The position numbers were made by a program, and so were the translations under genes. From NCBI RefSeq assembly GCF_901765095.1, contig NW_021963017.1, positions 302,253-366,252 of the forward strand: a stretch of 64,000 nucleotides of DNA. Reading direction: 5' to 3'. The stretch is from Microcaecilia unicolor. Taxonomy: Eukaryota. The notes below the pieces were generated by a model. That model did not search any database. It was given only the letters and a program-made list of their open reading frames with translations, and was not told the DNA's origin. This document shows positions 1 through 61,828 of this stretch, piece after piece (the stretch's first letter is position 1; each line of letters opens with the position of its first letter).

Positions 1-207
1 TCAGATGGAATTGACGGCTCTCAGGAGCAGGATTGTTGGATTCCTGGAGAGGATCCTTCAGTAGTGCGGATTTTCCATAAAGATGAGCTGTCAGAACTCA
101 TAGATCAGGTGTCGTCCACCCTTCAGTTTGGTCCTGAGGTGGCTTTGGGGGAAACTGTCCAGGATCCGTTGGTGAAGGGCATTCAGCGTCAGGCGTGATC
201 CTTCCCT

Positions 208-672
208 ATGAACAAGGATCTCCGGGAGATGATTTGTCAGGAATGGGATTTGCCGTGTAAGGTGGCAAAGGCAATGGCGAGGCTTTATCCCCTCCCTCAG
301 GACGATAGGGATTCCTTTAAGGCTCCCATGGTAGATGCAGTAGTGACGGCAGTAATTATAGCTACGGCTATTCCGGTTGATGGAGGAACGGCCCTCCGTG
401 ATCCTCAGGATAGGAGGTTGGGATCTTTTCTCAAGCGTAGTTTTGTTTTGTCGGCTCTAGCCCTGCAGGCCTTGGTTTGTGGGGGTCTGGTAGCTCGGGC
501 ATGTTTTCGTTGGGCCGAGAAGCTCCTGGATGATTCGGTAGATGTTGGTTCATCCTTTTTGTCTGAGGCTTTTATGATTTGTTGCGTACTTCAGACAAAA
601 AATATGGCTATGGTTGTGGGTCTCTGCCACTTAAGGGAGCTATGCTCTTTGGAGAAGATTTGGACAAGTTAG
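208..672 (+). pseudogene. Gag C-terminal fragment of DIRS copy A
   Basis: A 154-aa ORF lies immediately upstream of pol. It has weak similarity to the C-terminal part of the 702-aa Gag of the main copy, including a KAxRKxLARG-like stretch. There is no independent domain evidence. Confidence 0.35.
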
Positions 673-1193
673 TGTGAGGTCTTAGTGATACCAAGGTTCT
701 ATGGCTTCCAGATTTTCGGTTCAAGGCAGGGGCCAGAACTAGTTCCTCTCGGGGACGGTTTAGGGAGGCTCAGCGGTATAGGCCGGGCAGATCGAGTGGG
801 ACCTACCCCTAGCTGTCTGTTCGTCTGTCCAATTTAGATTGTAAGCTCTGTTGAGCAGGGACTGTCTTTTCATGTTAATTTGTACAGCGCTGCGTAAGTC
901 TAGTAGCGCTATAGAAATGTTTAATAGTAGTAGTAGTAGGACCTCTAGGGGTCGGTTTTTCCAGCGCACACAGTTCTTTCGTGAGAGTCGTCGCGGAGGG
1001 CGTGGCTTTTCCGCGGGAGGTTAGTATTCAGGCCGCAATTCCCAATGAAGGTGTGGCGGCTTAGGCTCTGTTGCATGTTGGGGCTTGGCTGAGTCTGTTT
1101 TACCAGAGCTGGGCCCAAATCAGGTCAGATCAGTGGGTTCTCAAGGTGTTTCGAGGCGGATATGCGCTGTAATTCGAAAGCTGTTCTCCCGAA

Positions 1194-2650
1194 GTGTTTC
1201 TGGAATCCCTCTGTCGGTCTTGGAGCAAGAGGGCAGCAGTGAGGGACACTCTGCGGTGGCTGCTCGCGTTGGGAGCCGTGGTTCCTGTTCCTTCAGATCA
1301 GCAACGCTCAGGGTGCTATTTGATCTATTTTGTGGTCCACAAGAAAGAGGACACTTTTCGTCCCATTTTAGATCTCAAAAGGGTCAATGCGGCACTCAAG
1401 GTGCCCTCTTTCCGGATGGAGACGTTGCGGTCGGTCACTGGTGCGGTCCGGAAAGGAGAGTTTCTCACTTCCCTGGATTTGACGGAAACTTATCTTTACT
1501 TTCCTTCGTGCGGCCTTTTGGTTCCAAGTTACAGGGTCCGATTCGTCGGTTCCTTGCAGAGAAGGCGCCGACGGCCCATACTTATCGTCAGGTCCTGGGC
1601 CTGATGGCGGCGACCATAGAGGTAGTTCTGTGGGCCAGGGCGCACATGCGTCAGGTACAGTCAGCTCTGCTCAGTCGTTGGTCCCCTCTGTCGCAGGACT
1701 TGGAGAGGTGTTGTCCGCTGTCGGTGGCCCCTCGTCTCAGTCTCCGATGGTGGCTCAACCCGCGCAATTTGGGAAAAGGAATGCCGTTGGAGTCCCCACA
1801 GGGGCTGGTAATGGTCACGGATGCCAGTCTGCAAGGTTGGGGGGCCACATTGTCTCGGTCAGGTAGCTCAAGGCCGGTGGTCTCGGGCAGAAGCAGAGTG
1901 GTCCATCAACCGGCTGGAACTCGGGCCATTCGGGTGGCGCTCCAGGCCTTGCCGTCGGTGGTTCGCCACAAGGCAGTCCGAGTGCTCTGCGACAACGCCA
2001 TGGCAGTAGCGTATGTCAACCGTCAAGGGGGACGAAGAGCCTTGGCGGCGCAGTTGAACTCATCTTCAGGCTCTCTTGGCAGCGCATGTGGCCGGGGTAG
2101 GTCACATAGATGCAGATTATCTCAGCAGGCACACTCTAGATCCCAGAGAGTGGTCTTTTCTTCGGTCAGTGTTCCAGCGAGTTGTGTCGGTCTGGGGACT
2201 TTCGGTGATAGATCTTAGGGCAACGGCTCGCTATGCGCAAGTTCAGAGATTTTTTTTTTCAGTCGCTGAAGAGACCCTCGAGCGGAGGGAATCGACGCTC
2301 TTCTGTTGCCTTGGCCTCGGGAGTGGCTGTATGTGTTTCCTCCGTGGCTGTTAGTCGGTCGAGTAATATAGCGCATCGAACATCACTCCGGTCGGGTGAT
2401 TCTGGTGGCTCCGGATTGGCAGCGTCGACCATGGTACAGAGACCTGGTGCGGTTGGCAGGGGCGGCGGCCCTGCCTTTGTTGGGATCAGTTCTGTGTCAA
2501 GGCCCGATAATCATGCCGGATCCGGCTCGGTTTTCGCTTACGGCTTGGCTCTTGAGCGGCACAAGTTGAAGAAGAAGGGGCTTTCGTCCAGTGGCTTTGC
2601 TACGATGTTGAGTTGCCGTAGACGATCCACTTCCTTGGCGTAGGTCCGGG
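1194..2650 (+). pseudogene. Pol of DIRS copy A, split across at least two reading frames. It comprises RT fingers/palm, RT thumb with RNase H, and a C-terminal tail.
   Basis: ORF 1194-1604 carries FRPILDLKRVNAAL and LTSLDLTETY. ORF 1085-2218 carries YRQVLGLMAATIEVV (thumb) and LVMVTDASLQGWGATL (RNase H). This C-terminal tail is collinear with ORF2 of the main copy (32675-34600), but the frames switch. Confidence 0.65.
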
Positions 2651-2895
2651 TTTGGAGAATCTTTGAGCACTGGTGTGAAGACCATCGAGTTCGGCCGGTT
2701 AGCTCTTCGGTGGCGGAAGTTTTGGAATTTTTGCACGATGGTGTTGATAGGGGTCTGGCCTTGTCTACACTGAAGGTTCAGGTGGCAGCTTTGTCATGTT
2801 TTCGTGGGAAGCTTCAGTGAAAGTCCTTCGCTTCTGTGCCTCAGGTAGTGCGTTTTTTGAAGGGTGTTAAGTTGCTGCGTCCGCCTCAGTGACGG

Positions 2896-3606
2896 ATGGT
2901 GCCTCCGTGGGATTTGAAGCTAGTTTTGAATGCTTTGATCAGGCCTCCGTTTGGGCCTCTGGTATCGGCATCTTGTAAGGATTTATCTTTAAAGACGGTC
3001 TTGTTGGGGGCGATTACTTCAGCACGGAGGGTTTCAGAGCTTCAGGCTTTGTCTTGTAGGGAACCATTTTTGTCCTTTCTGAGGGAAAGGTTTCGTTGCG
3101 GACGGTGCTTTCCTTTTTTGCCCAAGGTGGTTTCCGAGTTCCATGTTAATCAGGTCATCTCTCTGCCAGTGTTGGGTGATATGGCTGGAGATTCGGAGCA
3201 ACGTGGTATTGCCAAGCTGGATGTCAGGAGAGTTTTGAGTTGTTATCTCTCTGGAACTCAGGACTTCAGAGCCTCTGACCGTTTGTTCGTTCTTCATGGT
3301 GGCCCAAAGAAGGGTGCAGCGGCTCCTAAGGTGACCATAGCACGGTGGTTGAAGGAGGCGGTTGCATCTGCTTACTTGGTGAAGGGTCCTGTGGTGCCTA
3401 GGGGCTGGTCTGCTCATTCCACTAGGGGAATGGCAGCCTCGTGGGCGGAGAATAGTATGATTTCTCCATTAGATATTTGTCGGGCTGCGGTTTGGTTTTC
3501 GTTGCATTCCTTTGTGAAGCATTATAGGATTCCTGTGCATGCGAAGGACGAGGTGCGCTTTGGGGCAGCTGTTTTGACCTCTGGCCTTAGTAGGTCCCTC
3601 CCGTAA
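2896..3606 (+). CDS. Tyrosine recombinase (integrase-type YR) of DIRS copy A, an uninterrupted 236-aa ORF
   Basis: It contains box I ARRVSELQAL, box II HSTRGMAASWA (His-x-x-Arg) and a C-terminal KHYRIP that is the candidate catalytic Tyr. It is collinear with the disrupted YR of the main copy. Confidence 0.7.
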   Translation: MVPPWDLKLVLNALIRPPFGPLVSASCKDLSLKTVLLGAITSARRVSELQALSCREPFLSFLRERFRCGRCFPFLPKVVSEFHVNQVISLPVLGDMAGDSEQRGIAKLDVRRVLSCYLSGTQDFRASDRLFVLHGGPKKGAAAPKVTIARWLKEAVASAYLVKGPVVPRGWSAHSTRGMAASWAENSMISPLDICRAAVWFSLHSFVKHYRIPVHAKDEVRFGAAVLTSGLSRSLP

Positions 3607-4186: not shown

Positions 4187-6626
4187 CCTTTCAGTACAAA
4201 GCCCTTCCCTCCCCCCCCCCCCTACCAGCCTCAAGGTATTCACCAAATGCATTGTGGTTGTGGCAGCCTACCTACACAAGCAAATACTCCTTGATGTTTC
4301 CGTACTTCAAAGAATGACTTCTACTTCACCACCAGATCTAAATCTATCTTTGCCCATACATTTTCCAGCAAAATTGTGTCTATAGAAAAAGCAGGTGCAA
4401 GTGACCTTATTTTCTACCTGTGGTAAATGTAAAGGCCATGTATACACTTCCACTTTAAGAACTCATGCAAAGTCCACAGTAAAAGTTATGCACAATCTTT
4501 GTCCCAGTGTGAACAGTTTGAAAACTGCCCCCCTATTTTGCATTATTAGGCATCATATTTTATACAAGCTACAATATATATCCTAACAAGTAGAAAGACT
4601 GAAGGCACTTTTCCTAACTAGTTTCACAGTGTACACCAATTGTTCTTTGGCATCCTTACCAGACCAGTCCAGAACCTGTGGGCTGTACAAATTGACCAGC
4701 AAATGGGGACATCCTTAATTGCTCTGGCAGATGGTGACAGGCAGACTCTTCAGCTCCTGATCTGGTTACTGAAGCATCTCTTGCAAAGTGGTACCTCACT
4801 TGGTTGTAAACTTTAAAAAAAAAAGTTAAGGACATATAGCAAATTTAATTTAATCTGGAGCAAGGATTATAATTGGAGGAGTGCAAGTTCTTCTTCCCAT
4901 CCCCTTCCCTTTCCCCTCCATTGTTCACTGCTGTTTGTTTTTTCTTTCCCTTGAAAGGGGTTTAAATAATTGGATGGGAAGTTGTTTCCTCACCTTAAGA
5001 CATCATAAGAATTGTTGTGCAGCATTTGTTTCAAGCTACACTAGTGGTTAGAGGAAGCAGTTGGGAATATACACCAGTACCATGAGAAGGGATGATTCCC
5101 TTCAACTAGTCCTTAGGGATCCTGCATTAGAGGCCACGTGCTCATTCCAGCAGCAGTGCTTCTTTCAGAGTGCCTAAGCTAAAGCACCTGTCTTGCTTTC
5201 CAGCTTGGCCTGTGCACCTGAGGTAATTTTCAGGGTACGCTATAGGATGCAAACCTCAGTAGAAGAGGATAACTTGGAGGAGACTGTGACAAAACAGTGG
5301 GTTTGTAAGCCTGTAAACTGTATTATTTCTTGAAGTGTATTTCTCTAGTTTGGCCAGCAGGTGGTACATGTTTTATGTTTAAAGCTGTTAAAGAGAAATG
5401 ACTGTACCTTGTTTAGTTTAACACAAAGAAGTAGTACCCTGCAGTGATAAGGCCAGCTACTTTTAAAAAATGTTGTTCTGGGCTCTGGCCCAGGAGCTCA
5501 AATTCAGTCTGGAAATACTGGATTTTTCTCCAGTCTCAGTTTGGAAGTAGAGAGAGAGTGACCATTTTACTGAGACCCTGTGAACAGTTATATTCTGTAT
5601 CCTGTGAGCAGCTATATTTCCTGTACTTCCCAGGCTCTATCCAGTTAGTGATAAAATGTTTAGATAGTTTTATAATTGATCCTTATTCAGTTACCTGTTG
5701 TTTTCCATCTGTTTTTATAGTTCACTGTTCAGTATTTTTATAACCATAAAACCTTTTTAGATTATTGCCTCTGCTTGTCTGGACTGACTAAGAAGGTAGT
5801 TTGTGTGTTGGGGCTGTGACTGCTTTCTAGGAACTGTGGGAACACTGGGTCCCAGCAACCTAGAAATCACTGGGGATAACTTGAGAGCAGGAGACTTGCC
5901 AGGTGGGACCCAGTCGGTGGGAGAAGGATGCTAGCGCAGAGCACATACCCAGGTGCAGGCAGACCTGAGCTGTGCTGGGGATAGACCCTCTAAGTGGCCG
6001 CAAAGTTAGCCCCAGATGAGTGGCTAGTTGTTTCATGACAGAGTCCAAATAACCCTCCCCCCTCCCCCCGCTGGTTCATTTTCCTTCTTCCAAAATTTCT
6101 AACATTTAACTCTAAAGCCAAGACACAAGCCTTGTGCAAATCTATATTTTTTGGTGTGCCATTATAGGTGAGGTTCTAGCACCGCAAGTAACAAGGGATG
6201 ACTTTTCGTACCCTTGGCCTGGGGGAGTTCAGGTTGTAGCCACTTTCCTTTGCTGGCAGAAGCAGCATCTTGATCAGCATTTAAGCACAGTTATTCTCTC
6301 TGTAGTAGTGTGGCCCATGCCGCTGAGGAGTTCCTCGGGGCACATTTTGGAGGGAGCCCCCAGCAGACTGCATTTAGCATGGGCAGCAGCTCTTTTGGTT
6401 CCAGCAGCCTCTAGTTGACTGTTGTCCGCAAAACAAGCCAGGACCCAACTTACCAACTATCTTTTGAGTAAAATGAAAAAGTGACATTTAGTGGTGCTTT
6501 GCAAACCTGTGGGTCATGAATATAAGCTTGGGAAGACTGGCTACCTTGAGCAACCTTCTGAAGTAACTCTGGTCTCTGAGTCTTTAGTACAGTATTTTGG
6601 CTTCCTGCCTTCGTTGCTAATGGGAG

Positions 6627-6812
6627 TGGAGGAGTGGCCTAGTGGTTAGGGTGGTGGACTTTGGTCCTGAGGAACTGAGTTCAATTCCCACTTCAGGCAC
6701 AGGCAGCTCCTTGTGACTCTGGGCAAGTCACTTAACCCTCCATTGCCCTATGTAAGCCGCATTGAGCCTGCCATGAGTGGGAAAGCACGGGGTACAAATG
6801 TAACAAAAAAAA
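6627..6812 (+). mobile_element. tRNA-derived SINE
   Basis: It has an A-box-like tagtggttag head and a tail motif gtaagccgcattgagcctgc...gggaaagcacggggtacaaatgtaac. Related copies lie at 17342, 51925 and 24536 (minus strand). Confidence 0.6.
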
Positions 6813-11914: not shown

Positions 11915-12079
11915 GATGTTTTTACTGTAAGTGTTGGAAACTTGCCAGCAGAAGCTACAGTTCTGATCAAAATCACTTATATCACTGAGCTGAGTATGCA
12001 GCATGGATCTGTATGTTTCCACATACCTGCTGCTGTGGCACCTTGGCAACAGGACAAAGCACTGAAGGAAAATACACAG
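11915..12079 (+). CDS. PARP4: PARP4 exon in the VIT domain
   Basis: It translates to DVFTVSVGNLPAEATVLIKITYITELSMQHGSVCFHIPAAVAPWQQDKALKENTQ. The splice junctions are tttgtag| and cag|gtttgt. Confidence 0.85.
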
Positions 12080-12383
12080 GTTTGTGTAATGTGGAACTAG
12101 GGAGGTAATTTCTACAGGAAGACCTTTTGTAGCTGCAGGACTGTCTGATTGGAGGCAGCAAGATGGCTTACTGTGCCATTTTGTTTTATGTTTCTTTGAT
12201 GAAGTTTTGCTCCCAAGTCACGGCCTGGCACCTAATTACTTTTATCACTGACTGTGTGTCAATCTCTTTATTTGTTTGAAAACCTTAAAACTATTCTTAG
12301 TCATGTAGCAAAACCCTCTGTTCTGAAGTGACTTCTGCTGCTTTAGGGTAATTGATTAAACATTGGTGTATTATTTTTCACAG

Positions 12384-12430: not shown

Positions 12431-12568
12431 GCAAGTAATTAAAAAAAATATATGTATTTACATGCTGTGACAGTTTGTCACTATTTCAAAATAATGTATA
12501 TTGTGAATAGTTCAGCCAAATGATTTGGCGCTTTGTGAGTTATATGTGTTTTCTCTTTTGCTGTTCAG

Positions 12569-12650
12569 GGCATTCTCTTTGGATATGTCTGTTGAAATGC
12601 CGTACAAGATTGAATTCATTTACAGCCTAACACACAACATCAAAATAAAG
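12569..12650 (+). CDS. PARP4: PARP4 exon in the VIT domain
   Basis: It translates to (G)AFSLDMSVEMPYKIEFIYSLTHNIKIK, matching the human SFSLTMSIEMPYVIEF. The junctions are ttcag| and aag|gtaagt. Confidence 0.8.
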
Positions 12651-13285
12651 GTAAGTGAAGATCCTTTGCAACTGCAAAATAACTATTTCTAAGCATATTC
12701 TACCTTGATATTTTTACATAATTTAAGATTGTGGAAAACACTGATAAAATTATTAGAAAATGTGTTCAGTTAGAATTGTTGGGCCTGACGTTCATCCTGT
12801 GGTAGTCAGCGTTTTTTAAGCCACTGAAAGCTGTGGGCAGAGTTAAGACTGGATATTCATTGCTGGACTGTCAAGTCTTTAGAGGAGGAGGAGTAGGCTA
12901 ATGGTTAGTGTAATGGGCTTAGAACCAGGGGAACCCTGCGATGCAGCTCCTGAGCACATACACTTATCTAGGCAGGACATTTGCATCTTCTAATTTATGT
13001 GTTTACTTGCAAACTCCATAATCATGTAATTGCATGTACTTTTATGCCACTCCGTATTTTATAAGAGGCTTGTTACTTGCATATGTGGCCACATATGCTT
13101 GGAAATTACTTTACAAATTTACCTCCAAAGTGTGCTTCTCAGTTATTAACATCAGAATTAGCACATCTCTGTTGTTTGCATACCAGCTATATTATATAAG
13201 GAAGTCTCGTGGAAAATCACATAATACGCAGAAAGTTATCATTTTGTGAAAGTTATTCAGTTTTATTCCTCATTTGTTCTTTTAG

Positions 13286-13423
13286 AAAACAGAGTGTAAA
13301 GCTGTGATCAGCACCTGCAAGGACTCTTCATTAGACAGTGATGGCTTTGATTTACGTATATGCATGTGTAAAGCCCACCCTCCCAGAATGTGGGTGGAAA
13401 AGCACCCAGAGCATGAGAGTGAG
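13286..13423 (+). CDS. PARP4: PARP4 exon
   Basis: It translates to KTECKAVISTCKDSSLDSDGFDLRICMCKAHPPRMWVEKHPEHESE, matching the human KTDCKAVIST...LPRMWVEKHPEKESE. Confidence 0.85.
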
Positions 13424-15640: not shown

Positions 15641-16959
15641 TTTCTGTTTCCATCAGGAAAAATGGACATGCATACTTTTCTGCTCCTGGTTCTGAGGCCC
15701 TGCTCCTGGCCAGTTAGTCAACTGGTCTCCCAGTCAAGCTTGGCGGGTAAAGGTCTAGTGGGAGTCATATCTGGTGGTTCCAGATCCCTGTCTCTGTTCC
15801 CCATAGAACCCTCCCCTCTCTGATTTGCCCTCTTCTCTCTCTGGTCCCGCAGAACCCTGCCCTCTTTGTTTTCCTCTCTGCTCTCTAGTGCTGCCGGACA
15901 ACATTAAAGCGGTATTAAAAAAAAAAATAAAGAAAAAAGGGCTCTCTTTATCACAGCAGCTTCCTGGGACACGGAGCAGGCATTGCAGGACTGTACTCCT
16001 GTGCAGCTCTGGGACAGCCCCCAGTCGGGGGGCTGTGAGGTGAGAGGTTTTTCAGGGGTGACAGTGGACTGGGGGGTACCCTGTATTGGAACGGCAGTGG
16101 AGAAGCACTGGGGGCCGGTTTCGGCAGTTTGAAAGAAAAGAAAGGCATGATGTCTGCTCTCCTGGCGTTTTCTACCACGGTGGGGGAAGTGCTCCTGACG
16201 GTCAAGGACTGCAGAGGCTGGGTGTGGCTTCCATCTAGCATGCTTCTGTTTGCTCCTGGCCTGGGGCTACAGTTGAGTGGCTGCTTCTTCCATGGGCTGC
16301 GGCTCCCCTGCCTTTGGCAGTGCTGGGTCAACGCTGGGATCAGTCCCGGTAATGCCGTGTCCCTGCCTTATTTGCTTGCCCTCCTCGGTGTGCCTTGGAG
16401 GGCTGGCGTGCCACTAGTTCTAGTTAAAAAAACAAAAAAACAAACACCCTCAAGATAGTCGCGTGAGCTGGGCTGCTTGTCTCCATCCGGCACTTTGTCT
16501 GGGTTCTTTGGGGGCTGTTGGCATTCCTGGAGGTTTGCTCTGCTGGTCCCCTTTGGGTCACTAAGTCAACCCGTTGCACCTCCCCCCCCCCCCCCCTTTT
16601 GGACCACTTGAAGTGTCTGTGCCTTCTCCTGGTCTGTCTATGCAGTCGCCCTCTGGGGCTGCGGTAGTCGCACAAGGGCTTCAGCCTCTTGTAATTTGTC
16701 CCCGATGTGGTCTTCTCCTTGGTCTTCAGGGGTCCTTGTTTCTTCGTTGTGAAGGTCTCTGACCACCGGCAGTCTCTTTGCTCAGGGCTGCCGTGGTCTC
16801 TTAGAGCTTAGGTCACAGACCTCTCATACTTTTCGGGATAGCAGCAGTAGCCTCCTTTCTGGGGACATTTTTTTTTCCTGTATGTGTCTGTGGCAGCAGC
16901 CACTTCTATTCCACAGAGTGTACTTCTCTGCACCTCTAGGGTGTTTTTTTTCTGGAGAG

Positions 16960-18190
16960 TCTCAGCAGCTTCAGCTGTTTTCTCTGTTGAGAGTTGCAGA
17001 TGCCTCCTGGTTTTCACCGGTACGGCAGTCTCCTCTCTTTGGGATTGCGGGCGCCTCCTGGGCTTTGCAGCCTTGGCAGTCTCCCCTCTGCAGAGTTGCA
17101 GATGCCTTTGGGGCTGCACTGCTGCGGCAGTCTCCTTGCTTCTGAGTGGCGTACCTCTCCTGGTCCTCTCGGCCACAGCAGCCTCCTTTTGGGTGGAGTT
17201 GCAGATGCCTAGGGGCATCACAGCTGCGGCAGTCTCCTCTTCGGAATTGCAGACGCCTATAGGGCTTCATAGCCACAGCAATCTCCTATATGAAGTTGCA
17301 GACACCTCCCGGGCGTCACAGCCATGGCAGTCTCCTCCTTTGGAGTAGCCTAGTGGTTAGTGCAGTGGACTTTGATACTAGTGAACTGGGTTCAATTCCC
17401 AGTGCAGCTTCTTGTGACTCTGGGAAAGTCACTTAACCCTCCATTGTCCCAGGTACAATAAGAACCTGTATATACTATGTAAACCGCTTTGAATGTAGTT
17501 GCAAAATCCACAGAAAGGCGGTATATCTGGTACCAGTCCCTCCCTCCCGGTATTCACAGCCACGGCAGTCTCCTCTTCACAGTTGCAGACACCTCCCGGG
17601 CTTCACAGTCACGGCAGTCTTCTCTTTGGTTTCAAATGCTTCCCGGGCTTCACAGCCACAGCAGTCTTCTCTTCGGAGTTGCAGAGGCCTCCTGGGCTTC
17701 ACAGCCACGGCAGTCTCCTCTTTGGAATCTTAGATGCCTCCTGCACTTCACAGCTACGGTGGTCTTTCCTTCGGAGTTGCAGTCACCTCTTGGCCTTCGC
17801 AGCCGAGGCAGTTTCTCCTTTTCAGGATTGCAGTCACCTCTTGCATTCACAGTCCTGGCAGTCTCCTCTCCAGAGATGCAGTTGCCTCCTGGTCTTCTAG
17901 CTGCTGTTTTCTCCACACTTTGGGGTTGCAGTCACCTCCTCAGCTTCACCATTATGGTAGTCTTTTCTCTTTGGAGTGGTTGTCACCTTTGGGCTTTCCA
18001 GCTATGACGGGCCTCTGTCTTCGGAGTTGCAGGTCACTCTGGTAATCCGTAGTCTTGGCAGTCTCCCTTCCTGGAATCCAGTGGTTTTCTTCTCCAGGGC
18101 TACACACTTCTTGGGGGCAACATACAGCTCTGGAGGTCCTCACTGTTTGCAGTCTCCTCTCTTCTGAGTTGCAGTCTCTTCTCTTGGGAG
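16960..18190. repeat. 48-bp minisatellite array of about 25 units, interrupted by a SINE
   Basis: The unit is cacggcagtctcctcttcggagttgcagacacctcccgggcttcacagc, with variants. A SINE sits at 17342-17527. Six-frame ORFs across the array show repeated peptides and are artefacts. Confidence 0.8.
17342..17527 (+). mobile_element. tRNA-derived SINE inserted into the minisatellite
   Basis: The sequence ggagtagcctagtggttagtgcagtggactttg...gtcacttaaccctccattg...gtaaaccgctttgaatg interrupts the 48-bp periodicity. Confidence 0.6.
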
Positions 18191-19546
18191 TTGAGGTCCC
18201 AGTTTCTGTGGTTGCTGCTGTTCTGAATTGATGCCATTGGGGGTATTTTCTCGGCTACAGGCTTCCCAGTCGGCTCCAGTAGTTCAGTGTTACTGCGGCA
18301 GTCTGCTTTCTCTGGAGTGGCGGACATCTTACAGCTGGAGGTTCGGTCAGCTTCTGCAGTCTTTGGACTTGGGATCTCGTTGGGAATGGCTGATTCATGC
18401 CACAGCGGCGGCCAGAATGTTGAGCTCCTGCCAACACTTGGGGAGAGCAAGTTTCCTCACGGCTCAGCAACGTTGCTGTTGGTGAGGTGGATTTGCCTAA
18501 TCCTCAGTGTGCTCATCCTAGAGCATGGACTCAGTGCAGGTCCTGGAACCTATGTCTGTGGCCAGGGAAGTGGTTCCTGGTGGGGAGGGATAGCTTCTGT
18601 CTATGGCAGTTCTCCCTTCTCTTTCGGTGATCCCCAGCCCCCCAGAGTTGACGCCGGCAGTGGCCTTGGTCCGCCAGGCAGGGCATGCACTGGGAGTTGT
18701 TCCCACAGCCGCCCTCCCTCAAGAGTTCCGCTTCCTATTTTGTATTGGGGCTGGCTACGGCATTCTTCCTTGACTTTCCATACAGAGGAGGTCCCTTCTG
18801 GAAAGAGGTTCGCCTTTGGAACCCCTTTCGAACTTTGTGTTCGGTTTGATTTGTCTGCCTTGTGCTGCGGACTCTGCCACATCTGTCCTTTGGCCCTCTC
18901 CGGAAGGCCAACAATATGGTTCATACGTTGCGTGAGGTGTTTTTGATGTCTCTTACCTCTGGAGTGCGGATTTCTGGGCGCGGTAGTGCTGGGACCTGTT
19001 CCTCTGTTGCCGGAGGCTGGGGTCTCAGTTCTGTCCGTCCCTCTCTGCCTCAGTTGGTTTCAGTATTCCAAGTCAGTTGGTTGGCGTATCATCTGGTGTT
19101 TCGCCGGGATGTTGCATTTCGCCTCACTGAGGCTTCTGGGTGGCCGTTGGAGTTGTTTGCACTTTCTTGAGGCTTCTCCTTCCTTCTGATGTTTGGTTCG
19201 TCTGTTCAGCCCTTTTAGGGATGACAGAGGTTGAGTCTCATGGCGTCCTTGGTCACCTTTGCCTCTTGGTTGGTAGGGACGCTTACTTCAGCTGTCTCTA
19301 CGTGCTGGATAGCAGCATCCTGTGCAGCATCCATCTTGTTGGCCCGGTGGCTTTTGGCAGAGCAGCAACATGGTTGTTATTGTATGCGTTTGCTGGGCTT
19401 CTCAGTGGATATTGTGGCCGTTCGGCGGGGGTGGTCAGGGCTTCGGTTCTCCAGGCAGCGGAGCTGGGGTCCCACCCTGTTAGGATTGCTTTTGAATATC
19501 CCATGTGTCCTGGAATTGTGGGAAGTAACATAATGAAGGAGAAATT

Positions 19547-19920: not shown

Positions 19921-20513
19921 AATCAAATAGAAGAATAATGCAGATGTACACTGAGATCTGAGGTGTATGCCTAGTGGTGCTATTGAAATATAAAATAGTA
20001 GACGTTATAGGCAGTATTGACTTATATGTGGCACACATTCTTAAACTTTTGAAACTTTAAAAGTGTATATTTTTCACATTCTGATGTCTAAAAAGTACAA
20101 TTCAAAATGCATGAAAGTATGAGCTTGCTTTACTGATTTACACTGCATACTCTACATTTTCAATGTAAAAGAATAATTATAGAAATATTCAAAGGTCTTA
20201 GGCAACTGTGTAGCCTGGTGATTGGGTAAGCAGGCCCCTCCTGTACCCACTGCTTGAGTGAAAGTACCCATGCTCTCAGGGGGGGGGGGGGCAGTTTTTG
20301 GTGCCTCATTTTTCACAGGTAGGCAGGTAGGTGTTTACCCATGGAAAAAGATTTGAAAAACTGCTCTCTTGAAGTTTCTGGTTGAGTAAATTTAGGGGGA
20401 CTTTATTTCATGACCCATCTGGTTGCCATCTGGGAACCAGATCAATATCTTGTATACAATATAGGGTAGGTTCGTCATTGCTGATGGGGCTGTTTTGTTT
20501 TTTCTTCCTGTAG

Positions 20514-20712
20514 GCATGTATGCTGGTGTTTCAACCCTATTTTGAACCATCCACTTTATTTGAAGTGGATGATTCCAGTGAGATTGTTATTTGTTTGGAT
20601 TGCTCTACCTCCATGGAGGGCTTGATATTCCAGCAGGCCAAGCAGATTGCTCTTCTTGTGCTGAAGTCTCTTAGTGACCGTCACCAAATAAACCTTATCA
20701 GGTTTGGCACAA
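20514..20712 (+). CDS. PARP4: PARP4 exon at the start of the vWA domain
   Basis: It translates to ACMLVFQPYFEPSTLFEVDDSSEIVICLDCSTSMEGLIFQQAKQIALLVLKSLSDRHQINLIRFGT. The human counterpart is ACMLVFQP...EVIICLDCSSSMEG..FLQAKQIAL...NIIQFGT. The donor is a|gtaagt. Confidence 0.85.
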
Positions 20713-20989
20713 GTAAGTTGGTTCTTTCTGTTTTCTGCCAGAGTATTTGGTTACATATTTTCATAATGGTTAAGTTGAAAGATGACCTGTTTTAACTTAC
20801 AGCGATAGCTCTCTCAAAGAGCTATCACTGTTAATTCCATATAATCTACCTGCATCATGATGTCTACCAGTCCCTTTTCCCTCATAAAATGTGTTAAGAT
20901 TTCTTTTGAAAACATTTCAAGTCAAATGGGTACAGAACAAGTGAATAGGAGTTAGGAATTAAAAGCAGTTTCAAAAAGGTAAGCTTTTA

Positions 20990-21365
20990 GCCTAGATTTG
21001 AAGACAGCCAGAGATGGAGCTTAACGCATTGATTCAGGAAGTCTATTCCAGGCATATGGTGCAGCAAGATAAAAGGAGCAGAGTCTGGAGTTGACAGTGG
21101 GGGAGTAGGGCTCAGATAAGAGAGATTTACCCAGTGAAGGAGTTCCCAGGGAGGATTGTAGGGAGAGATAAGAGTGGAGAGGTACTGAGGAGCTGCAGAC
21201 TGAATACACTTATAAATCAGCAAGAGGAATTTGAACTGTATGCGGAAACAGATGGGGAGCCTGTGAAGTGACTTGAGGAGAGGGCTAATATGAGCATAGC
21301 AACACTGGTGGAATAGCCGCTTTCTTAGACTTTCAGCATAGGCATTGCATCCTGTTATAAAATTA
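20990..21365. repeat. Unclassified interspersed repeat
   Basis: It shares a motif block of about 75 bp, gaactgtat.cgg...agccagtgaagtgacttgaggagaggg..atatgag.ata, with 37330-37620. The remaining sequence is related more loosely. Confidence 0.3.
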
Positions 21366-21429
21366 CCCCCCATATAGGTACTCTATCTTTTTTGTTGTGG
21401 TATGATTTGGTTTCCATTCTTTTATGTAG

Positions 21430-21497
21430 ATTATCAAGAATTATTTTCCTATCCAAAGAGCACAACAAACCGATCCTTATTGGAAGAATATATTAAA
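21430..21497 (+). CDS. PARP4: PARP4 exon in the vWA domain
   Basis: It translates to (N)YQELFSYPKSTTNRSLLEEYIK, matching the human YKELFSYPKHITSN. The junctions are tttatgtag| and aaa|gtgagt. Confidence 0.8.
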
Positions 21498-21829
21498 GTG
21501 AGTTACAATTGTTCCTTTCAGTGTGCAACTGATTTTATTATTTGTCTCCATTCCCCTAACACAAGTTCCCTCCTTTATTTTTCTCAACCCTCTTTATTCT
21601 TCTAGGCCCCCACCAATCACTCACTGATTTCTTTTAGCCATAAAAACCATTCTTACAAAAAGAATTCTGCATTTGTCTGAGAGGTCATAAGAAATCCCCA
21701 TTGTAAATGAAGAAAAAAGACACAAACTCTGTTTATTTTCTAAATTAAAGAGCTGATCTGCTATTGGGAGAAAAAATAAGATTCAGATTATTCAGGTGTT
21801 TGTTTTTTTCACTGTTTTTTTTTTCTCAG

Positions 21830-22017
21830 ATTGCCACACCCACGATGGGTAACACTGACTTGTGGAAACCTTTGCGCTCTTTGAGTTTGTTAGCACCTTC
21901 CGACCGTCTGCGCAACATTCTGCTAATATCTGATGGCCACATTCAGAATGAGAGCCTTACTTTCCAAATTATAAAGAAGAGTATCAAGCACACAAGGTTA
22001 TTTGCCTGTGGTGTTGG
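21830..22017 (+). CDS. PARP4: PARP4 exon in the vWA domain
   Basis: It translates to IATPTMGNTDLWKPLRSLSLLAPSDRLRNILLISDGHIQNESLTFQIIKKSIKHTRLFACGVG. The human counterpart is ATPTMGNTDFWKTLRYLSLL...NILLVSDGHLQDESLTLQLVKRSRPHTRLFACGIG. The donor is gg|gtaggt. Confidence 0.85.
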
Positions 22018-22778
22018 GTAGGTACAAAGTAAATCTTCTCTTTCTGAGTAAAGGATCATGGATTTGATATACTGCCTTTGTGGTACAGTCAGTGGTTTAC
22101 ATTTATTATAAAACAATGACAGTGGCTCCCTTAACTGTATATGTTCACTGTGGGACCTCAGATAGTATCCACTTATATTATAAATCAGCTCCCACTATCT
22201 TCTGTCAGTGTCAGTTCAAACAATCATTAATCAATATATTTCTCTTGGTGACCTCAGCTGTGCACATTACCAGTTTTACTGAATGGCAATGGGTTCTGCC
22301 CACCTTTCTTCATTGGTTCACACTATTAATGCATTTATTTTTTATCATTATTATTAACATTTAATTTTTGTAGTCAAATGCTCATCTTATATAGATATAT
22401 CGGACCCAGGGGTTGATGTTACTGTCCGACATGCATGTTTCACCCTTGTCAGGGCTGTTTCAAGGACTACCCCCTATGAAAAATACATAAAGATTAACTT
22501 CAACGGTATAGTGACAGAGATATAAAGTTAATTTCTCATACCACCCCACCGCTATATACCGCTAAACGGTAGAGGGGATGTATATAGCGGTGGGGTGGTA
22601 TGAGAAATTAACTTTGTATCTCTGTCACTATACTGTTGAAGTTAATCTTTAAGTATTTTTCGTAGGGGGTAGTCCTTGAAACAGCCCTGACAAGGGCGAA
22701 ACATGCATGTCGGACAGTAACATCAACCCCTGGGTCCGATATATCTATATAAGATGAGTATTTGACTACAAAAATTAA

Positions 22779-23828
22779 ATGTTACCTAGAGCCCTCTTAT
22801 ATAAGAGTAGACGGGAGGGAGGGTTGGGGATGCCCAACCTTCAATGGTATTATTGTGCAGCACAGTCTAGGGCGGCAGTAGATTGGTTTCGACGAGAGGA
22901 CCACAAGCTGTGGGTTGACATTGAACAAAATCTGGTGGGTTCTCGTAAGTTGGGACATCTAATGTGGATCGCAGGTAATGATAGGGGTCGGGTGGATAAA
23001 TTTCCACCTACAGTACAAGCTACTTTTCACTACTGGGACCTCCTGTTTCCCCAGCAGCAACCTTTGGTGTCAGGACTAGCCCCGATAGTGGATAACCCTC
23101 TGTTTGCCCCGGGTATAGGAAACACTACATTCTGTAAATGGGCGGAGGCGGGTTTGGACATGTTGGGTCAATTACATGTGGGGGAGACTATTGTACCCTT
23201 CGAGACTCTTGTGACTGACTTCGGTCTTTCACGGGGGGATCGATACGCCCACTTGCAACTACAACACTTTTTGAAAGGGAAGGCGTATATGGGATGCCTG
23301 AAATGGGATACTCACCCGTTGGAGGAGGTATGTGTAGACCCCAAGGGCACGAAAGGATTGATTTCCAAACTGTACACTTACTTAGTGAAAGGCTCCAAAA
23401 CATCCCTATTGCATAGAAAACGGTGGGAACAGGAGCTACAGTTCTCGTTACCGGAGACGGGTTGGCTGACCTTAGAGAGGAGTCTGTTGCGGGTCTCTCG
23501 TGCAGTGGACATGCAGGAGAATGCTGTAAAGGTATTCTGTAGATGGTACCTGACCCCGGTTAGATTACACCATATGTTTCCGCAGGTTTCAAAGGGCTGC
23601 TGGAGGAATTGTGGGGGGGAGGGGACTATGGGTCACATATGGTGGCTATGTCCTAAGGCACAGGCCTATTGGAGGGGTGTGCACTCTCGACTTCAAGTAT
23701 GGCTCGGCAGTTCTGTGCGGTGGCATCCTTTGATCTTCCTATTAGGACAGAGACCTGAGGGCATTACATCTGATCAGTGTGGATTGGTAAGACAGTCCTT
23801 GGTGGCGGCCCGAGTCCACTTGGCCTGA
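22779..23828 (+). CDS. C-terminal part of LINE ORF2, comprising the post-RT region and a Cys-rich CCHC-like domain
   Basis: The 349-aa ORF reads KSRREGGLGMPNLQWYYCAAQ...CRWYLTPVRL...CWRNCGGEGTMGHIWWLCP, which is the L1-type C-terminal cysteine motif. Its ATG is supplied by the target-site duplication. Confidence 0.65.
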   Translation: MLPRALLYKSRREGGLGMPNLQWYYCAAQSRAAVDWFRREDHKLWVDIEQNLVGSRKLGHLMWIAGNDRGRVDKFPPTVQATFHYWDLLFPQQQPLVSGLAPIVDNPLFAPGIGNTTFCKWAEAGLDMLGQLHVGETIVPFETLVTDFGLSRGDRYAHLQLQHFLKGKAYMGCLKWDTHPLEEVCVDPKGTKGLISKLYTYLVKGSKTSLLHRKRWEQELQFSLPETGWLTLERSLLRVSRAVDMQENAVKVFCRWYLTPVRLHHMFPQVSKGCWRNCGGEGTMGHIWWLCPKAQAYWRGVHSRLQVWLGSSVRWHPLIFLLGQRPEGITSDQCGLVRQSLVAARVHLA

Positions 23829-24283
23829 AATTGGAAAAGACCACAGGTACCCTCAATGAGTGGTTGGCTTACTAAAGTGAGTTACATATGTGAAATGGAG
23901 AGACTGACTGCAGCGAAAGGGAGAAATTTGCCAAAATGGCAAAAGATATGGACTCCTTTTGAAAGCACACAAAGGGAACTGGATAACAAATGTAATTTTA
24001 GCAGTCTTTACTGATAAGGATGGGAAGACGGGGTGGGGGGGAGGGTAGAGGGGGGGGAGGGTCAAGGCAGGTGAAGGGAGGGAGGATCTGTTGTATAAAA
24101 TTAAAAATGATAGAAGTAACATAAGCTACTGTTAAAGCATTGTGTTGGTGATGGTGCATTTCTTTACTAGATACCCAATGTTAGATTCATATTGTGTTAA
24201 GAAAGTGTAAGGTCTCTCATTGAGTTTGGACTGGTTATCCTATGCAATGATCAATAAAATCTTCTAAATATTAAAAAAAAAAA
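22785..24283 (+). mobile_element. 5'-truncated L1/Tx1-like LINE 3' fragment with a poly-A tail and TSD
   Basis: It contains an ORF2 C-terminal domain. A poly-A run lies at 24273-24283. A direct repeat attaaatgtta flanks both ends (22774-22784 and 24284-24294). Confidence 0.7.
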
Positions 24284-24535
24284 ATTAAATGTTAATAATG
24301 TTAAAAAATAAATGCATTAATAGTGTGAACCAATGAAGAAAAGTGTGCAGAACCCATTGCCATTCAGTAAAATTGGTAATGTGCAAAGCTGAGGTCACCA
24401 AGAGAAATATATTGGTTAATGATTGTTTGAACTGACACTGACAGAAGATAGTGGGAGCCGATTTATAATATAAGTGGTTACCTTTATTATATGCAGGTAC
24501 TTTCTCTGTCTCTACTGGGCTGACAATCTTAGTTT

Positions 24536-24658
24536 GTGTACCTGGGGCAAGGGAAGGTTAAGTGACTTATCCAGGATCACAAGGAGCTGCAGTAGGAATT
24601 GAACCCATTTCTCCAGGTTCTCAGCTCACTGCTCTAACCATTAGGCCAGTCCTCCACT
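24536..24658 (-). mobile_element. tRNA-derived SINE on the minus strand
   Basis: The reverse complement reads agtggaggactggcctaatggttagagcagtgag...gggttcaattcctactgcagctccttgtgatcc...gtcacttaacc. Confidence 0.5.
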
Positions 24659-25926
24659 CTGTTTACAAGCTGTTAAATAAACCAGAGGGGGATAAATGTT
24701 GAGAGTCAGAATAGAAGAGAAAGAAGAAACAATTTAGGAGAGTGAGACAGTTTTGGTGGGCAACAGGAAGAAGGCTGAGAGACACCCAGATAAGAGGAGA
24801 GATAAAAATGGGTATGGGAAGAGACTGCTTTTGGAGAAGTGAAGGGTGAAAGGGAAAAATATTAGTGAGGATTTGGTGAGACAGAGCATGAGAAAGAAGC
24901 GAGATGTTTTTGCAGATCAGGAATTAATGGGAAGAGAAACATATTATGTTGTGAAGTGAAGGAGGAGAAACAGGCAGGAGAAAGTCAATTGTAAAAGACT
25001 GGGAGAGAGAATAGGAGACAAGTTGATGAAGAAGGGAAATGGTGGAAAAAAAGAGACTGAGGAGTAAAGTAACTAAGAACAAGAAATTGAAGAGAAAAAC
25101 TTATCCAGTGGAAAAGAAGGCTACTCGGGAAAGAGACGATAAAAGCATATGAGACCTTGTGAGATACTCTTATACTGATTGATAGAAAGACTAGCTGAAG
25201 AGTGACAGACAAGGGACATACAATATTTGAGCCTACACAAAGAAATATAGGGACTGAGATTCAAAGTGTTAAACAAAACCAGAGAGGCTCCTGCCCAGTT
25301 AAACCATTCTGAATGGGCTGGGAGGGGATATTCAGCAGCACTTAACTGGACAGTGCTGCTGAATATCAACTCCTCTGACTGTCTAGTTAGTGCCAAGCGA
25401 GGTCTGAGGTCAGAGCTGGGATTTAATTGCTAACCAGGTAAGTAAGCAGCTAAAATTAGGGCAGCAAAAAACTATTTAACTTGCCTTCTCAGCCATCCAG
25501 ATGCTGATGCTTGGGTTATACATGCCTACTAAAAGATGGAGACAGAAACAAACATGGGCGCTAGAGGCCAGTAGTGCCATACTAGTGCCTGTGTTTGTGC
25601 CTGCCCGATGATCAGAGCCGGTGAGCATGTGTAATAATGCGATTGCCAGCTCTGAACGCTAATTGCATGCAAATGCATGTAAACAAGAGTCTCCCGCATT
25701 CATTCATCCCTCCTGATCAGCGGGCAACGTGCCAAACAAGGGCACTGCTACCGCTGCAAACCTTATGCCAGCTAGGACCTGGCGTTAAGGTTTGCTAGCG
25801 AGGGAGACCCACTGAAGAGGTTTGACAGGTCTGGGATTTTCTCCTGGACCTGTTAAACCTAAGCCTGCCCCCCCCCCTCCCAAACACAATATCTGGAGGG
25901 CCGGTTGACCTCCAGGTCCCCCACCC

Positions 25927-26096
25927 CCAAAGCACAAAAAAACCCTGGTGGTCCAGTGGGACCACTAGCTTCCCCCCACCCCACCGCAGAACAAAAACAC
26001 CCTGGTGGTCCAGTGGGACTGATAGCTTCCCCCCTCCCTCCCCCCCACCAAACAAAAATGCCCTGGTGGTCCAGTGGGACCGCTATCTATCAGCCC
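25927..26096. repeat. Minisatellite of three units of about 60 bp
   Basis: The unit caaa.caaaaa.accctggtggtccagtgggac..ctagcttcccccc.cccc is repeated three times in tandem. Confidence 0.6.
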
Positions 26097-27825
26097 TCCT
26101 TTACCCCCAGCAGCCTTACCTCATGGTCGTGATAGTGGGAGGAGGGAGGGACTAGCATTCCCTCCCTCCTCTTCAGGGGCTTTCCCAAAATGGCAGCGTC
26201 CCACCCTGCCTGGTGCATCCTGGGGTGTGTCGGGTGGTGCATAACCCAAAGATACCAGTTTGGGCGGGGAGCATGCAGCACGGGTGAAAGATGCATCATA
26301 TCTCTGGGATCCCAGAGGCGCACCAGTTGAAAAATGCTGATTTAGCAGTTTGTGGAACTGCTTAAGGTTCTGTTTTGTCTTTATTTTTCAAGAGCATTCT
26401 AACTGTTGGACTCGTGTGGCAGGTGTTAAACCAAAACACGGCCCTTGTCAGGTCTTTAAGAATAAAGGACTCTGATTTGTCACAGTCTTGAAGGCCCAGC
26501 TGTGCTTTTTTTCTTTTGTTGCCTGTGTTTGTGTACTTTTGAACCCTCTCTTTTGTCACCGAGTTTCTATACTATTGTAACTCTGTCTTGGCATTCCTTA
26601 GCAGCTTATATTGAGACTATGGTTGATTCAACATACTGCTGCTTATATTGGTCATTTAGGAAGATTTGATAATGTGTCTCTTATATAGTGTGAATTTCAC
26701 TGCCCTTCAATTTAAATTGTTAACTCTGGTTTTGACACTTAGGCAGGGTCAGTGTCTTGAGTGTGATAAAATCATTAGCTGTTCCTTATATTTCTTATAC
26801 ACTGAACATGCGGAACTGTTGATCCATCATCTGTTCGTGATTTGCGGTTGGATGGCTATCATAAGAGAACATTTTCTGTATTGCCTGCTATTTTTATGTA
26901 GTGAGCTTCCATTGTCTATGCTGTTGGAGAGGAACAATCTTAGTTTTAGGAAATTGTTGAAAGCTTATTTTTTGAGTTGCTTTTCACTGGATAAATGCAT
27001 AATGTATTTTATTTATTTGATGTGGCCATTCATTTTTGGATTGTTGTATGGTTTATGGCATGTGTATATGATTGTTGGTTGGGGGAATTGTGTAGATAGA
27101 GAGAATGAGTATTATTGTAATGATTATTTATCTCTACTGTGATTTTTATTTGATATAATCAACAGTATGAAAGCTTGTTTAAATAAATAAATGAAATGAT
27201 ATAATGTTAATGTGAATTACCCACATATCATTTACCCTCTTATACTTGGGGCCTACTATTAAGCACCAAGTGCGCACCTGGTTTATCAAAGACTAGCACT
27301 AATGCATGTCAGAGGCACCACTAATTGGCATTTATGTGATGTATTCCCGCTTATGTGGAAACAGGAAGTTGCATCAGAAGGAAGGCTGTGGGGCCAACAT
27401 GAGCAGTGTATTAGTTGCTGCTCGCTGCAGGTGAAAATCTGCTATTTAAAAGGTATGCGGGGGAGGGGGCATGTTTGAGAGACCGTATGGTATGCAGGTG
27501 AGAGATGGAGAGACCAAATCACTTGTGGGACAGGGCGGAGTTCTTCTGCCCACCCATCTTGGGCCCAAACTCACCCAAAATTGGATGTCTGGCTACGCCC
27601 ATGGCGTTTTTGTATAGCCCTGTTTGATTTATGGGCACTTCATATTATCTGCTCATAAGACCGTGATTACTCTTTACTGATACCCTTCCATTCACATATA
27701 ATTTAGCTTTTCGCTCTTTCCTGTGTGTTATTTTGGGCGGATTTTGTGCAGATAGTATACATGGAAAATGTTTGACAGATATCCAAATTATAATCATTTG
27801 TAAATTAATGTTAAAATTTGATCAG

Positions 27826-47662: not shown

Positions 47663-47758
47663 ATGAGGAAACAAGAATTAAAGTCACTTATAATTGAGCT
47701 TAGCAAGGAGTACTCCATTGTGACTCAGTTCACAAGTTTTGTAGCCATTGAGGAAAGG
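47663..47758 (+). CDS. PARP4: PARP4 exon
   Basis: It translates to MRKQELKSLIIELSKEYSIVTQFTSFVAIEER, matching the human MKKQTLKSLIIKLSKENSLITQFTSFVAVEKR. The junctions are ttctag| and agg|gtatgt. Confidence 0.85.
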
Positions 47759-47877
47759 GTATGTATTAAACTAGATAACTTTAAAATCTACTGTTTTATA
47801 AATTGGGCCATAGGCTTTACTGTATTATTTTCTTCTATGGTTAATAATTTATGACGCTGCACTGTAAAAGAACAGTT

Positions 47878-50858: not shown

Positions 50859-51924
50859 ATACTCTAGGCTAAACTCTACTAGACATACAAATGCTCATTC
50901 CTTTCTTTTTTTCTTATTGGCGTGAGAGGAGAAAAAGCAAAATGGAAAGTGCCTGTTCTGGAGGAGCCCCTCTGCACCTCTCCATAAATGTGTTTCTTGA
51001 ATAAAGCAAATATCTGCAGATAGGCAGGGTGACTCTTGAAACATACACTGTCCTTTTAAAGGGGACTTCAGCCCCTTAACATATTAATTTTAAAAGGAGT
51101 AGCTCCCATGGAAATCAGAAGGTCCAGGCCATCCAATGAACAGGCAAAAGTACCACCTTATAGTTTATTAAAACTTGCTACTTCTCAAACCGACAAAGCA
51201 ACGTACAGACTAAAAGTCAAAGGTAGGAAAGAAACTCATAATTGACAGGACAGTAACAGATAATGAAGTATGTAGAAATAAAAATAAAGATATTAGGAAG
51301 GAAGGGGGTGATGCAAAAGGTGGGCATATCAGACAAGGCAAGGATAAGACTAATGCTTGGGGTTGCTGGCACCATTTTGAATCTGGCAGAGGCAGGAGTG
51401 ACTGGAGGATCATTCCTGTGTAAACCTCAGGGAAACATCAAGGTAGGCCTGTAGGGGTGAATTTCCAGTAGGGGTCTTCAGCTGGGGGAGCCTTGAAGTC
51501 AGGGTGCTGTTGTGAGGGGGTATTACATATGGGGGGGGGGGGGGGGAGGAGGATTTGTGGTTTGGGGGAGGAGGCTGAGGGGGAAGCTTATTTTTACTGT
51601 GGCTGGCCCCTTAAGCAGTGCCCAGGAGTAAAGCCACGGGGTGAGGAATTCAAGGAAGGGAAGAGATAGGGAAGAAGCTGGATATGAGGAGGGACAGGGA
51701 CACAAGGAGAGGGATAAGGACACATAGGAAGTATGGTGAATATGGAGGGAGAATAGGGACAGTGAGAGGGCAGATGCTGAACATGGTGGGAAGTTAGAGA
51801 CAGAGAGACATAAGGAAGACAGTGGACAAGAAGGATAGGGGGATGGGGAAGATGAATGGTGGACATAGATAAGAAATGTCAAAAGGACAGGACATCCTGG
51901 AAAAGGAAAAAACAAAGCAAAGCA

Positions 51925-52112
51925 GAGTGGAGGAGTGGTCTAGTGGTTAGGGTGGTGGACTTTGGTCCTGGGGAACTGAGGAACTGAGTTCGATTCCCGG
52001 CACAGGCAGCTCCTTGTGACTGGGCAAGTCACTTAACCCTCCATTGCCTGCCGCATTGAGCCTGCCATGAGTGGGAAAGCACGGGGTACAAATGTAACAA
52101 AAATAAAATAAA
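51925..52112 (+). mobile_element. tRNA-derived SINE
   Basis: It is near-identical to the copy at 6627-6812. Confidence 0.6.
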
Positions 52113-52639: not shown

Positions 52640-52822
52640 GGTTCCGAGATAACGCCACAGCCTGACATTCCAAACATTAAAGAACTTATAGCCAAAGAAG
52701 ATATAGATCTCCTGCCTTATATGGACTGGGAAATGAATGCTAATAAATACGGGAACTTGGCAAATGATTTATGTGTTAAAGACGACTCTCTGGATGGATT
52801 TGATGACAACTTCTTTACAGAG
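52640..52822 (+). CDS. PARP4: PARP4 exon
   Basis: It translates to GSEITPQPDIPNIKELIAKEDIDLLPYMDWEMNANKYGNLANDLCVKDDSLDGFDDNFFTE, matching the human ...PFPDIPKVSELIAKEDVDFLPYMSW.... The junctions are aactag| and gag|gtaaat. Confidence 0.8.
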
Positions 52823-61328: not shown

Positions 61329-61828
61329 GTAAGTACTGGTCTAAATTCTAACAATATTATTGTGTTAGAAATTCTGTTGACAGTTATATGACAAAGATCT
61401 TTGTCTCTATCACAGGATCTCAAGAATGTTAATCTTTTAGATACATTAACTAACTTGAATCAATACCACTACCAACTGTATACACATCAAGGAACTTGAA
61501 ATAGTGTCCAAATGCATTGTATCGTAGATCAAATGTTTCATTTTGTGAATTATAAACAATGCACAGGTATGTCATAAATACAAGTCATACTGATTTTGTA
61601 GTTGGGTGAGGATCCTGTCCCAAAGTGCTTACCATTTAACTAGGAAGAAAGGGTGACATACAAAAGATGGTTTTAAGAGTAGTACCTTGAGCACAAAGGT
61701 GGGTTTTCTAGAGGTTATTAGAATGCTTGTTTGAAGAAGCATTTTTTCAGATAGGACTTCCCATGAGGGGCTTCTTGCATATTGTAAAAGAGAGAAAATT
61801 TAGAAGGTATTTTGAGTATTGATATGTC

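Follow-up and report, generated by a model that had tools for sequence, protein, structure and literature searches.

A 5′-truncated L1 insertion nested in an 807-bp palindrome within a PARP4 intron of Microcaecilia unicolor

In Microcaecilia unicolor, an intron of the PARP4 orthologue contains an 807-bp palindrome, into the right arm of which a 5′-truncated L1-clade LINE has almost certainly retrotransposed. The locus is read as a two-step nested repeat of ordinary configuration, for which no function is indicated, and the probability of this reading as a whole is roughly 0.5. The sequence under analysis, called the window throughout, is a stretch of 64,000 nt from assembly GCF_901765095.1 (contig NW_021963017.1, positions 302,253-366,252, forward strand); its features are listed in Table 1, and all coordinates are those of the window.

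The exons of the PARP4 orthologue lie on the + strand of the window, and both the palindrome and the L1 fall within a single intron of this gene. In particular, the palindrome begins about 148 nt downstream of the splice donor (5′ splice site) of the 21830-22017 exon, and the L1 is in the sense orientation with respect to PARP4. A search of protein collections with PARP4 exon sequence retrieved no close orthologue; the best PARP4 matches had identities of 60-68% and covered single exons only.

Table 1. Features of the palindrome, the L1 insert and their surroundings.
Feature	Position	Strand	Remarks
PARP4 (vault poly-ADP-ribose polymerase) exons, VIT and VWA domains	11915-12097, 12540-12600, 13286-13420, 21830-22017, ~47663-47760, 52640-52830, 53789-53900	+	
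PARP4 exon upstream of the palindrome (VWA domain)	21830-22017	+	Matches human PARP4 residues 970-1005, E=1e-12
Palindrome, left arm	22165-22559		395 nt, 36% G+C; from the alignment
Terminal motif (GTA)TCCACTTATATTATAAATC	starts 22165/22168		End of the left arm
TA dinucleotide outside the left terminus	22166-22167		Together with 24479-24480, the only TSD candidate of the palindrome; weak
Palindrome, spacer CGCTAAACGGTAGAGGGGAT	22560-22579		20 nt, non-palindromic
Palindrome, right arm, inner part	22580-22784		205 nt, 97% complementary to 22355-22559; its end is the LINE 5′ junction
Left TSD copy of the L1, AAAAATTAAATGTTA	22770-22784	+	11 nt unambiguous, up to 15; holds the ATG at 22779-22781
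5′-truncated L1-clade LINE: body, 3′UTR and A tail	22785-24279	+	Border between tail and TSD ambiguous within the A run 24273-24284
ORF2 C-terminal remnant	22785-24012	+	409 codons; single in-frame TGA at 23826-23828
CCHC zinc knuckle CWRNCGGEGTMGHIWWLC	23598-23651	+	C-X3-C-X7-H-X4-C; L1 ORF2 C-terminal domain
G-rich polypurine tract	24029-24085	+	LINE 3′UTR; runs of 3-8 G
AATAAA polyadenylation signal	24253-24258	+	14 nt upstream of the A run
Right TSD copy of the L1, AAAAATTAAATGTTA	24280-24294	+	
Palindrome, right arm, outer part	24295-24481		187 nt, 96% complementary to 22165-22353
TA dinucleotide outside the right terminus	24479-24480		
MIR-core SINE copy, right flank of the palindrome	24537-24660	+	At least four more copies in the window
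Other MIR-core SINE copies	6624-6754, 17342-17457, 51920-52048, 12887-12933	− (all)	
DIRS-like pieces, LAP2alpha-like (DIRS gag-like) segment	61823-62425		
DIRS-like pieces, YLDDWLV reverse-transcriptase motif	in ORF 62791-63210		
DIRS-like pieces, RT_RNaseH domain	63432-63872		

The palindrome becomes continuous when the insert and one copy of its target site duplication (TSD) are deleted together (22785-24294), which joins 22165-22784 to 24295-24481. A repeat scan detects two inverted pairs, one formed by 22355-22559 and 22580-22784 (205 nt, 97%) and the other by 22165-22353 and 24293-24481 (189 nt, 96%). When the right arm is rejoined (22580-22784 plus 24295-24481) and its reverse complement is aligned globally with the left arm, 395 nt pair with 392 nt, and 378 matches stand against 14 mismatches and one 3-bp indel (96.4%). 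Calculated with RNA parameters, the reconstructed 807-nt element folds into a single hairpin in which 96% of the bases are paired, with an energy of −671.5 kcal/mol, and its inner 620 nt alone yield a z-score of −31 in comparison to dinucleotide shuffles. The palindrome is real and stands far above chance. An earlier note on this DNA had placed it correctly to within a few bases, and the segments it had proposed as reverse complements (22169-22558 and 24295-24478) do align as such, through the 96% outer pair and the continuous arm alignment; its arms of about 385 bp and loop of about 22 bp are corrected to 392-395 bp and 20 nt. With the L1 in place, the locus retains a hairpin with 205-bp arms and, at a distance, the 189-bp inverted pair.

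The outer boundaries of the palindrome are sharp and symmetric, reading G-TA-T-CCACTT... on the left and ...AAGTGG-T-TA-C on the right. In DNA as AT-rich as this, chance alone would place a TA dinucleotide on both flanks in about one case in ten, and, TA being its own reverse complement, the same bases can also be taken to prolong the inverted repeat (GTA...TAC). The arms contain no ORF of note and no coding capacity. Two copies of the heptamer ACCGCTA, 10 nt apart, are found where the left arm meets the spacer (22548-22565); the pair could be a microhomology left by a template switch or by a rearrangement of the centre, or it could be a chance repeat.

The insert itself is an L1-clade LINE of which the 3′ 1.5 kb are present. 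Its 349-aa ORF (22779-23828) has 3352 relatives at E<=1e-3 in a library of 1.8 billion proteins, and those of full length (about 1250-1270 aa; P0005, P0010, P0015 and P0031) carry Exo_endo_phos and RVT_1 domains. One of them, P0005, aligns end to end with human LINE-1 ORF2p (E=7.7e-167), and the ORF in the window matches residues 858-904 and 1035-1184 of the human protein with the CCHC motif included (E=1.2e-17). The L1 identity was set through these relatives and through PDB sequences rather than through Pfam, where the 349-aa ORF alone matched only zf-RVT, below threshold. On this homology, the insert is a member of the L1 superfamily, an assignment that does not distinguish L1 proper from the Tx1 subgroup. 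It entered an AT-rich stretch of the palindrome arm that has no other copy in the window and that is not known as a Tx1-group target.

Comparison with a 1268-aa Xenopus tropicalis L1 ORF2 places the remnant at residues 863-1252, with 31% identity over 399 aa. The alignment runs for 45 more residues past the in-frame TGA, ending 16 residues short of the C-terminus, and the TGA stands opposite an Arg in the X. tropicalis relative; the stop is plausibly a nonsense change from CGA to TGA. The 349-aa ORF, which had been taken as the ORF2 remnant, is therefore too short a description: the coding remnant extends over 409 codons to 24012 and is broken by the TGA. This copy is truncated at about ORF2 residue 860 and has no ORF1, endonuclease or reverse transcriptase, and together with the nonsense codon these absences make it inert. 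The closest ORF2s come from X. tropicalis, Leptobrachium leishanense and Hyla sarda, all of them anurans, and their identity is only about 30%; as this is the best identity found among 1.8 billion representatives, the L1 lineage of the insert is not represented there.

Beyond its coding homology, the insert has the hallmarks of an L1 insertion. The repeat AAAAATTAAATGTTA flanks it as exact 15-bp direct copies, of which 11 bp (ATTAAATGTTA) are unambiguous, and the four further leading A's, part of a run of five, are inseparable from the A tail. The A run is 12 nt long (24273-24284), leaving a tail proper of 7-11 A, and ATTAAATGTTA is the only 11-mer in the window that is repeated at this offset. 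At the left edge of the TSD, the bottom-strand sequence is 5′-TAATTTTT/GTAG-3′, which is near the L1 endonuclease consensus nick of TTTT/A and not identical to it. Target-primed reverse transcription typically leaves an A tail, a TSD of variable length and a 5′ truncation. Moreover, deleting the insert and one TSD copy restores the arm alignment exactly, so that the LINE must have entered a palindrome that already existed. Retrotransposition of the L1 into the right arm by this mechanism is thus close to certain, and no evidence against the step was noted.

The interpretation in the earlier note is supported in part. Its 5′-truncated L1-type LINE with poly-A is upheld by the homology to L1 ORF2s, the AATAAA, the A tail and the TSD; the direct repeat it saw around the LINE is present at 22770-22784 and 24280-24294, with a length of 11-15 bp in place of the proposed 11-13 bp; the target agrees with an L1-type endonuclease in having a bottom-strand T run (5′-TTTTT/G); and the claim that the LINE landed in a palindrome holds, as the arm alignment is continuous through the junction. 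It was also right that the duplicated target supplies the ATG of the 349-aa ORF: the left TSD copy contains this codon (22779-22781) in the ORF2 frame, a coincidence that has no evident consequence. The note's further suggestion, a foldback transposon, gained no support from the analysis and was not refuted by it.

The same TSD bears on two other ways in which the palindrome might have come about. Formation of the palindrome by the L1 event is ruled out by the presence of an ordinary L1 TSD inside one arm. Fold-back chimeras do occur in long-read and amplified libraries, and a chimeric fold-back read or a missed hairpin adapter could in this manner have introduced the palindrome as an assembly or library artefact. 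However, the arms differ at 14 positions and by an indel, with a biological bias toward transitions and CpG sites, and the LINE occupies one arm only and has a clean TSD, where an artefact would have duplicated the LINE or produced arms that are identical over kilobases; an artefact is accordingly very improbable.

The origin of the palindrome is a separate question, for which a foldback-like or MITE-like mobile element is put forward tentatively, at close to even odds. The sharp symmetric ends, the TA flanks and the commonness of foldback-like and MITE-like elements in lower-vertebrate genomes are the grounds for leaning this way, and the lack of coding capacity and an organization in which the whole sequence is inverted repeat plus short spacer also count in its favor. 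Against it stand the chance frequency of the TA flanks and the results of the copy searches: blastn, sensitive blastn and nhmmer detected no second copy of an arm elsewhere in the window (62 kb), and a search there with mismatches allowed detected no second copy of the 14-28-nt terminus. Further, a 26-mer that is identical in both arms had no match in a metagenome collection. The flanks were also inspected for TSDs: no 3-, 4- or 8-bp direct repeat borders the palindrome at any choice of boundary, and a TSD longer than 2 bp is absent.

Both the copy searches and the TSD result would also be expected if unique intron sequence had been duplicated locally in inverted orientation, through fold-back priming or a template switch in the course of replication or break repair, with the L1 following later. 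In such a duplication, the 20-nt asymmetric centre would be either the switch junction or a later stabilizing rearrangement, and the ACCGCTA pair would be a possible microhomology. The 14 arm mismatches comprise 9 transitions and 5 transversions, and 4 of the 14 are at CpG sites; these differences (about 3.6%) look like the neutral decay, CpG decay included, of two copies that were once identical or nearly so. Such decay is listed in support of the duplication, though the pattern fits a young palindromic MITE and a de novo inverted duplication alike. However, both outer boundaries are sharp and symmetric with a TA on each side, a template switch would need a second switch back exactly at the end of the arm, and the single-copy argument is limited by the size of the window, as 62 kb is far too short for ruling out a family whose copies number up to tens of thousands. 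On balance, a local inverted duplication is a doubtful origin that nevertheless deserves serious weight.

Vertebrate introns often contain interspersed repeats in inverted pairs, and the two arms could accordingly be two independent insertions of one repeat of about 395 bp (a SINE or a MITE monomer), tail to tail and in opposite orientation. This would require that both copies be full length to the same outer base and abut within 20 nt. A monomeric copy is absent from the window, the inner ends have no A-rich or simple-repeat tail, and a tRNA scan gave no match, leaving the arms without a tRNA-derived SINE head. Two such insertions are improbable.

Several other candidate identities for the palindrome were considered and rejected. 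A 13/14 direct repeat, TTACNTTTATTATA (22097 and 24478), does not serve as a long TSD, as its left copy is 55 bp away from the left terminus, it is accompanied by no A or T tail, and about 20 similar short AT-rich chance repeats occur in the region. Insertion of the palindrome into the neighboring MIR-core SINE is contradicted by a five-copy alignment and a search with the left flank as query, according to which the SINE starts at or just to the right of the palindrome and is not split; it consequently offers no paralogous empty site. An Rfam scan of 20000-27000 gave no match above threshold in the arms, and the miRNA matches that it returned (mir-3179 with 45 bits versus a gathering score of 90, mir-253 and mir-8364) are generic hairpin matches centered on the tip of the palindrome.

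The putative mobile element has features of several known systems. Palindromic MITEs with TA target sites include human MADE1 and zebrafish Angel. Similar to such MITEs (Stowaway-like, Tc1/mariner-derived), the palindrome is non-coding, intronic, nearly all inverted repeat with a short spacer, and flanked by TA; unlike them, it has a length of 807 bp, several times the typical one, only one copy of it is known here, its TA flanks are only a candidate TSD, and its termini are unlike the usual Tc1/mariner ends, which counts against the transposon reading. The origin of palindromic MITEs is discussed in PMC3814204. Drosophila Foldback (FB) and Galileo elements likewise consist for the most part of very long terminal inverted repeats. 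However, FB arms consist of tandem subrepeats, and Tandem Repeats Finder detected none in the arms here (22000-24700, score threshold of 30). FB and Galileo create TSDs of 7-9 bp; the palindrome has no TSD of that length, and its host is a vertebrate.

The palindrome also shares near-identical arms and a short asymmetric centre with fold-back inverted duplications and centre-modified palindromes, but differs in being small, sharply bounded and located inside otherwise normal sequence. Inverted-duplication models have reportedly been proposed for vertebrate palindromes, and a centre-break mechanism, by which long palindromes relax to asymmetric centres, is said to have been described by Cunningham et al. 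2003. The 20-nt spacer is compatible with a centre-break route to stabilizing asymmetric centres, for which a source is cited in the reference list of PMC7680136. The longest spacer-less palindrome in the human reference is 618 bp (PMC7680136); at 807 bp, the palindrome described here is longer, but it has an asymmetric 20-nt centre and is not spacer-less.

For the L1, the closest parallel is with other 5′-truncated LINE-1 insertions, which it resembles in its homologous ORF2 C-terminal domain with CCHC motif, its AATAAA and A tail, its 11-15-bp TSD and its T-rich nick site. Mammalian L1 3′UTRs carry a G-rich tract that is prone to form G-quadruplexes. The polypurine tract in the 3′UTR of the insert (24029-24085) resembles it, in a lineage whose closest relatives are amphibian. 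The insert is unlike the sampled LINE-1s in being only about 30% identical to the closest ORF2.

The proposed sequence of events would begin with the arrival, about 150 bp downstream of a PARP4 exon, of a non-coding and near-total inverted repeat of about 800 bp, possibly a foldback-like or MITE-like element and perhaps of a TA-targeting cut-and-paste type. Its arms, at that time identical or nearly so, would then have accumulated their differences of about 3.6%. In the second step, which is close to certain, an L1-clade LINE entered the right arm at a point 205 bp away from the centre: the bottom strand was nicked in the T run of 5′-AATTTTT/G-3′, where the A tail primed. Reverse transcription stopped or disengaged after about 1.5 kb, near ORF2 residue 860, resulting in the 5′ truncation, and cleavage of the second strand 11-15 bp away generated the TSD.

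Beyond annotation, the locus carries little weight. It provides a clean relative dating of a retrotransposon and its target, with the palindrome first and the L1 second, and an example of a long palindrome that persists in a vertebrate germ line. If the arm sequence belongs to a family, it would add one more non-autonomous DNA element to the inventory of a poorly curated genome. In principle, the processing of the PARP4 pre-mRNA could be influenced by the sense-oriented L1 with its AATAAA and by the hairpin, which lies about 150 nt from a splice donor. A more specific possibility, which is rather unlikely, is that the palindrome is one copy of an uncharacterized TA-target foldback-like transposon family and a source of dsRNA in the PARP4 pre-mRNA that the L1 has partly dismantled; if so, a hairpin with a 395-bp stem would have provided a substrate for editing or for small-RNA production.

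The remainder of the window contains several other repeats. The MIR-core SINE copies are 72-80% identical to the one at 24537-24660 and have a MIR-like core, GGTTAAGTGACTTGCCCAG...GGGAATTGAACCCAG...CTAACCACTAGGCCACTCC, which as a text string had no match in a literature search. A GC-rich minisatellite occupies 17055-17900 (possibly about 16800-18300), with a unit of about 49 bp and a higher-order period of 96-102 bp, and yields long spurious ORFs in several frames. Adjoining the PARP4 C-terminal exon, a long CT/CTG-rich stretch of low complexity (53800-54500) gives poly-Pro, poly-Leu or poly-Ser, depending on the frame. Lastly, a DIRS-like retroelement is represented by ORF-rich pieces at each end of the window (1-3600 and 61800-64000).
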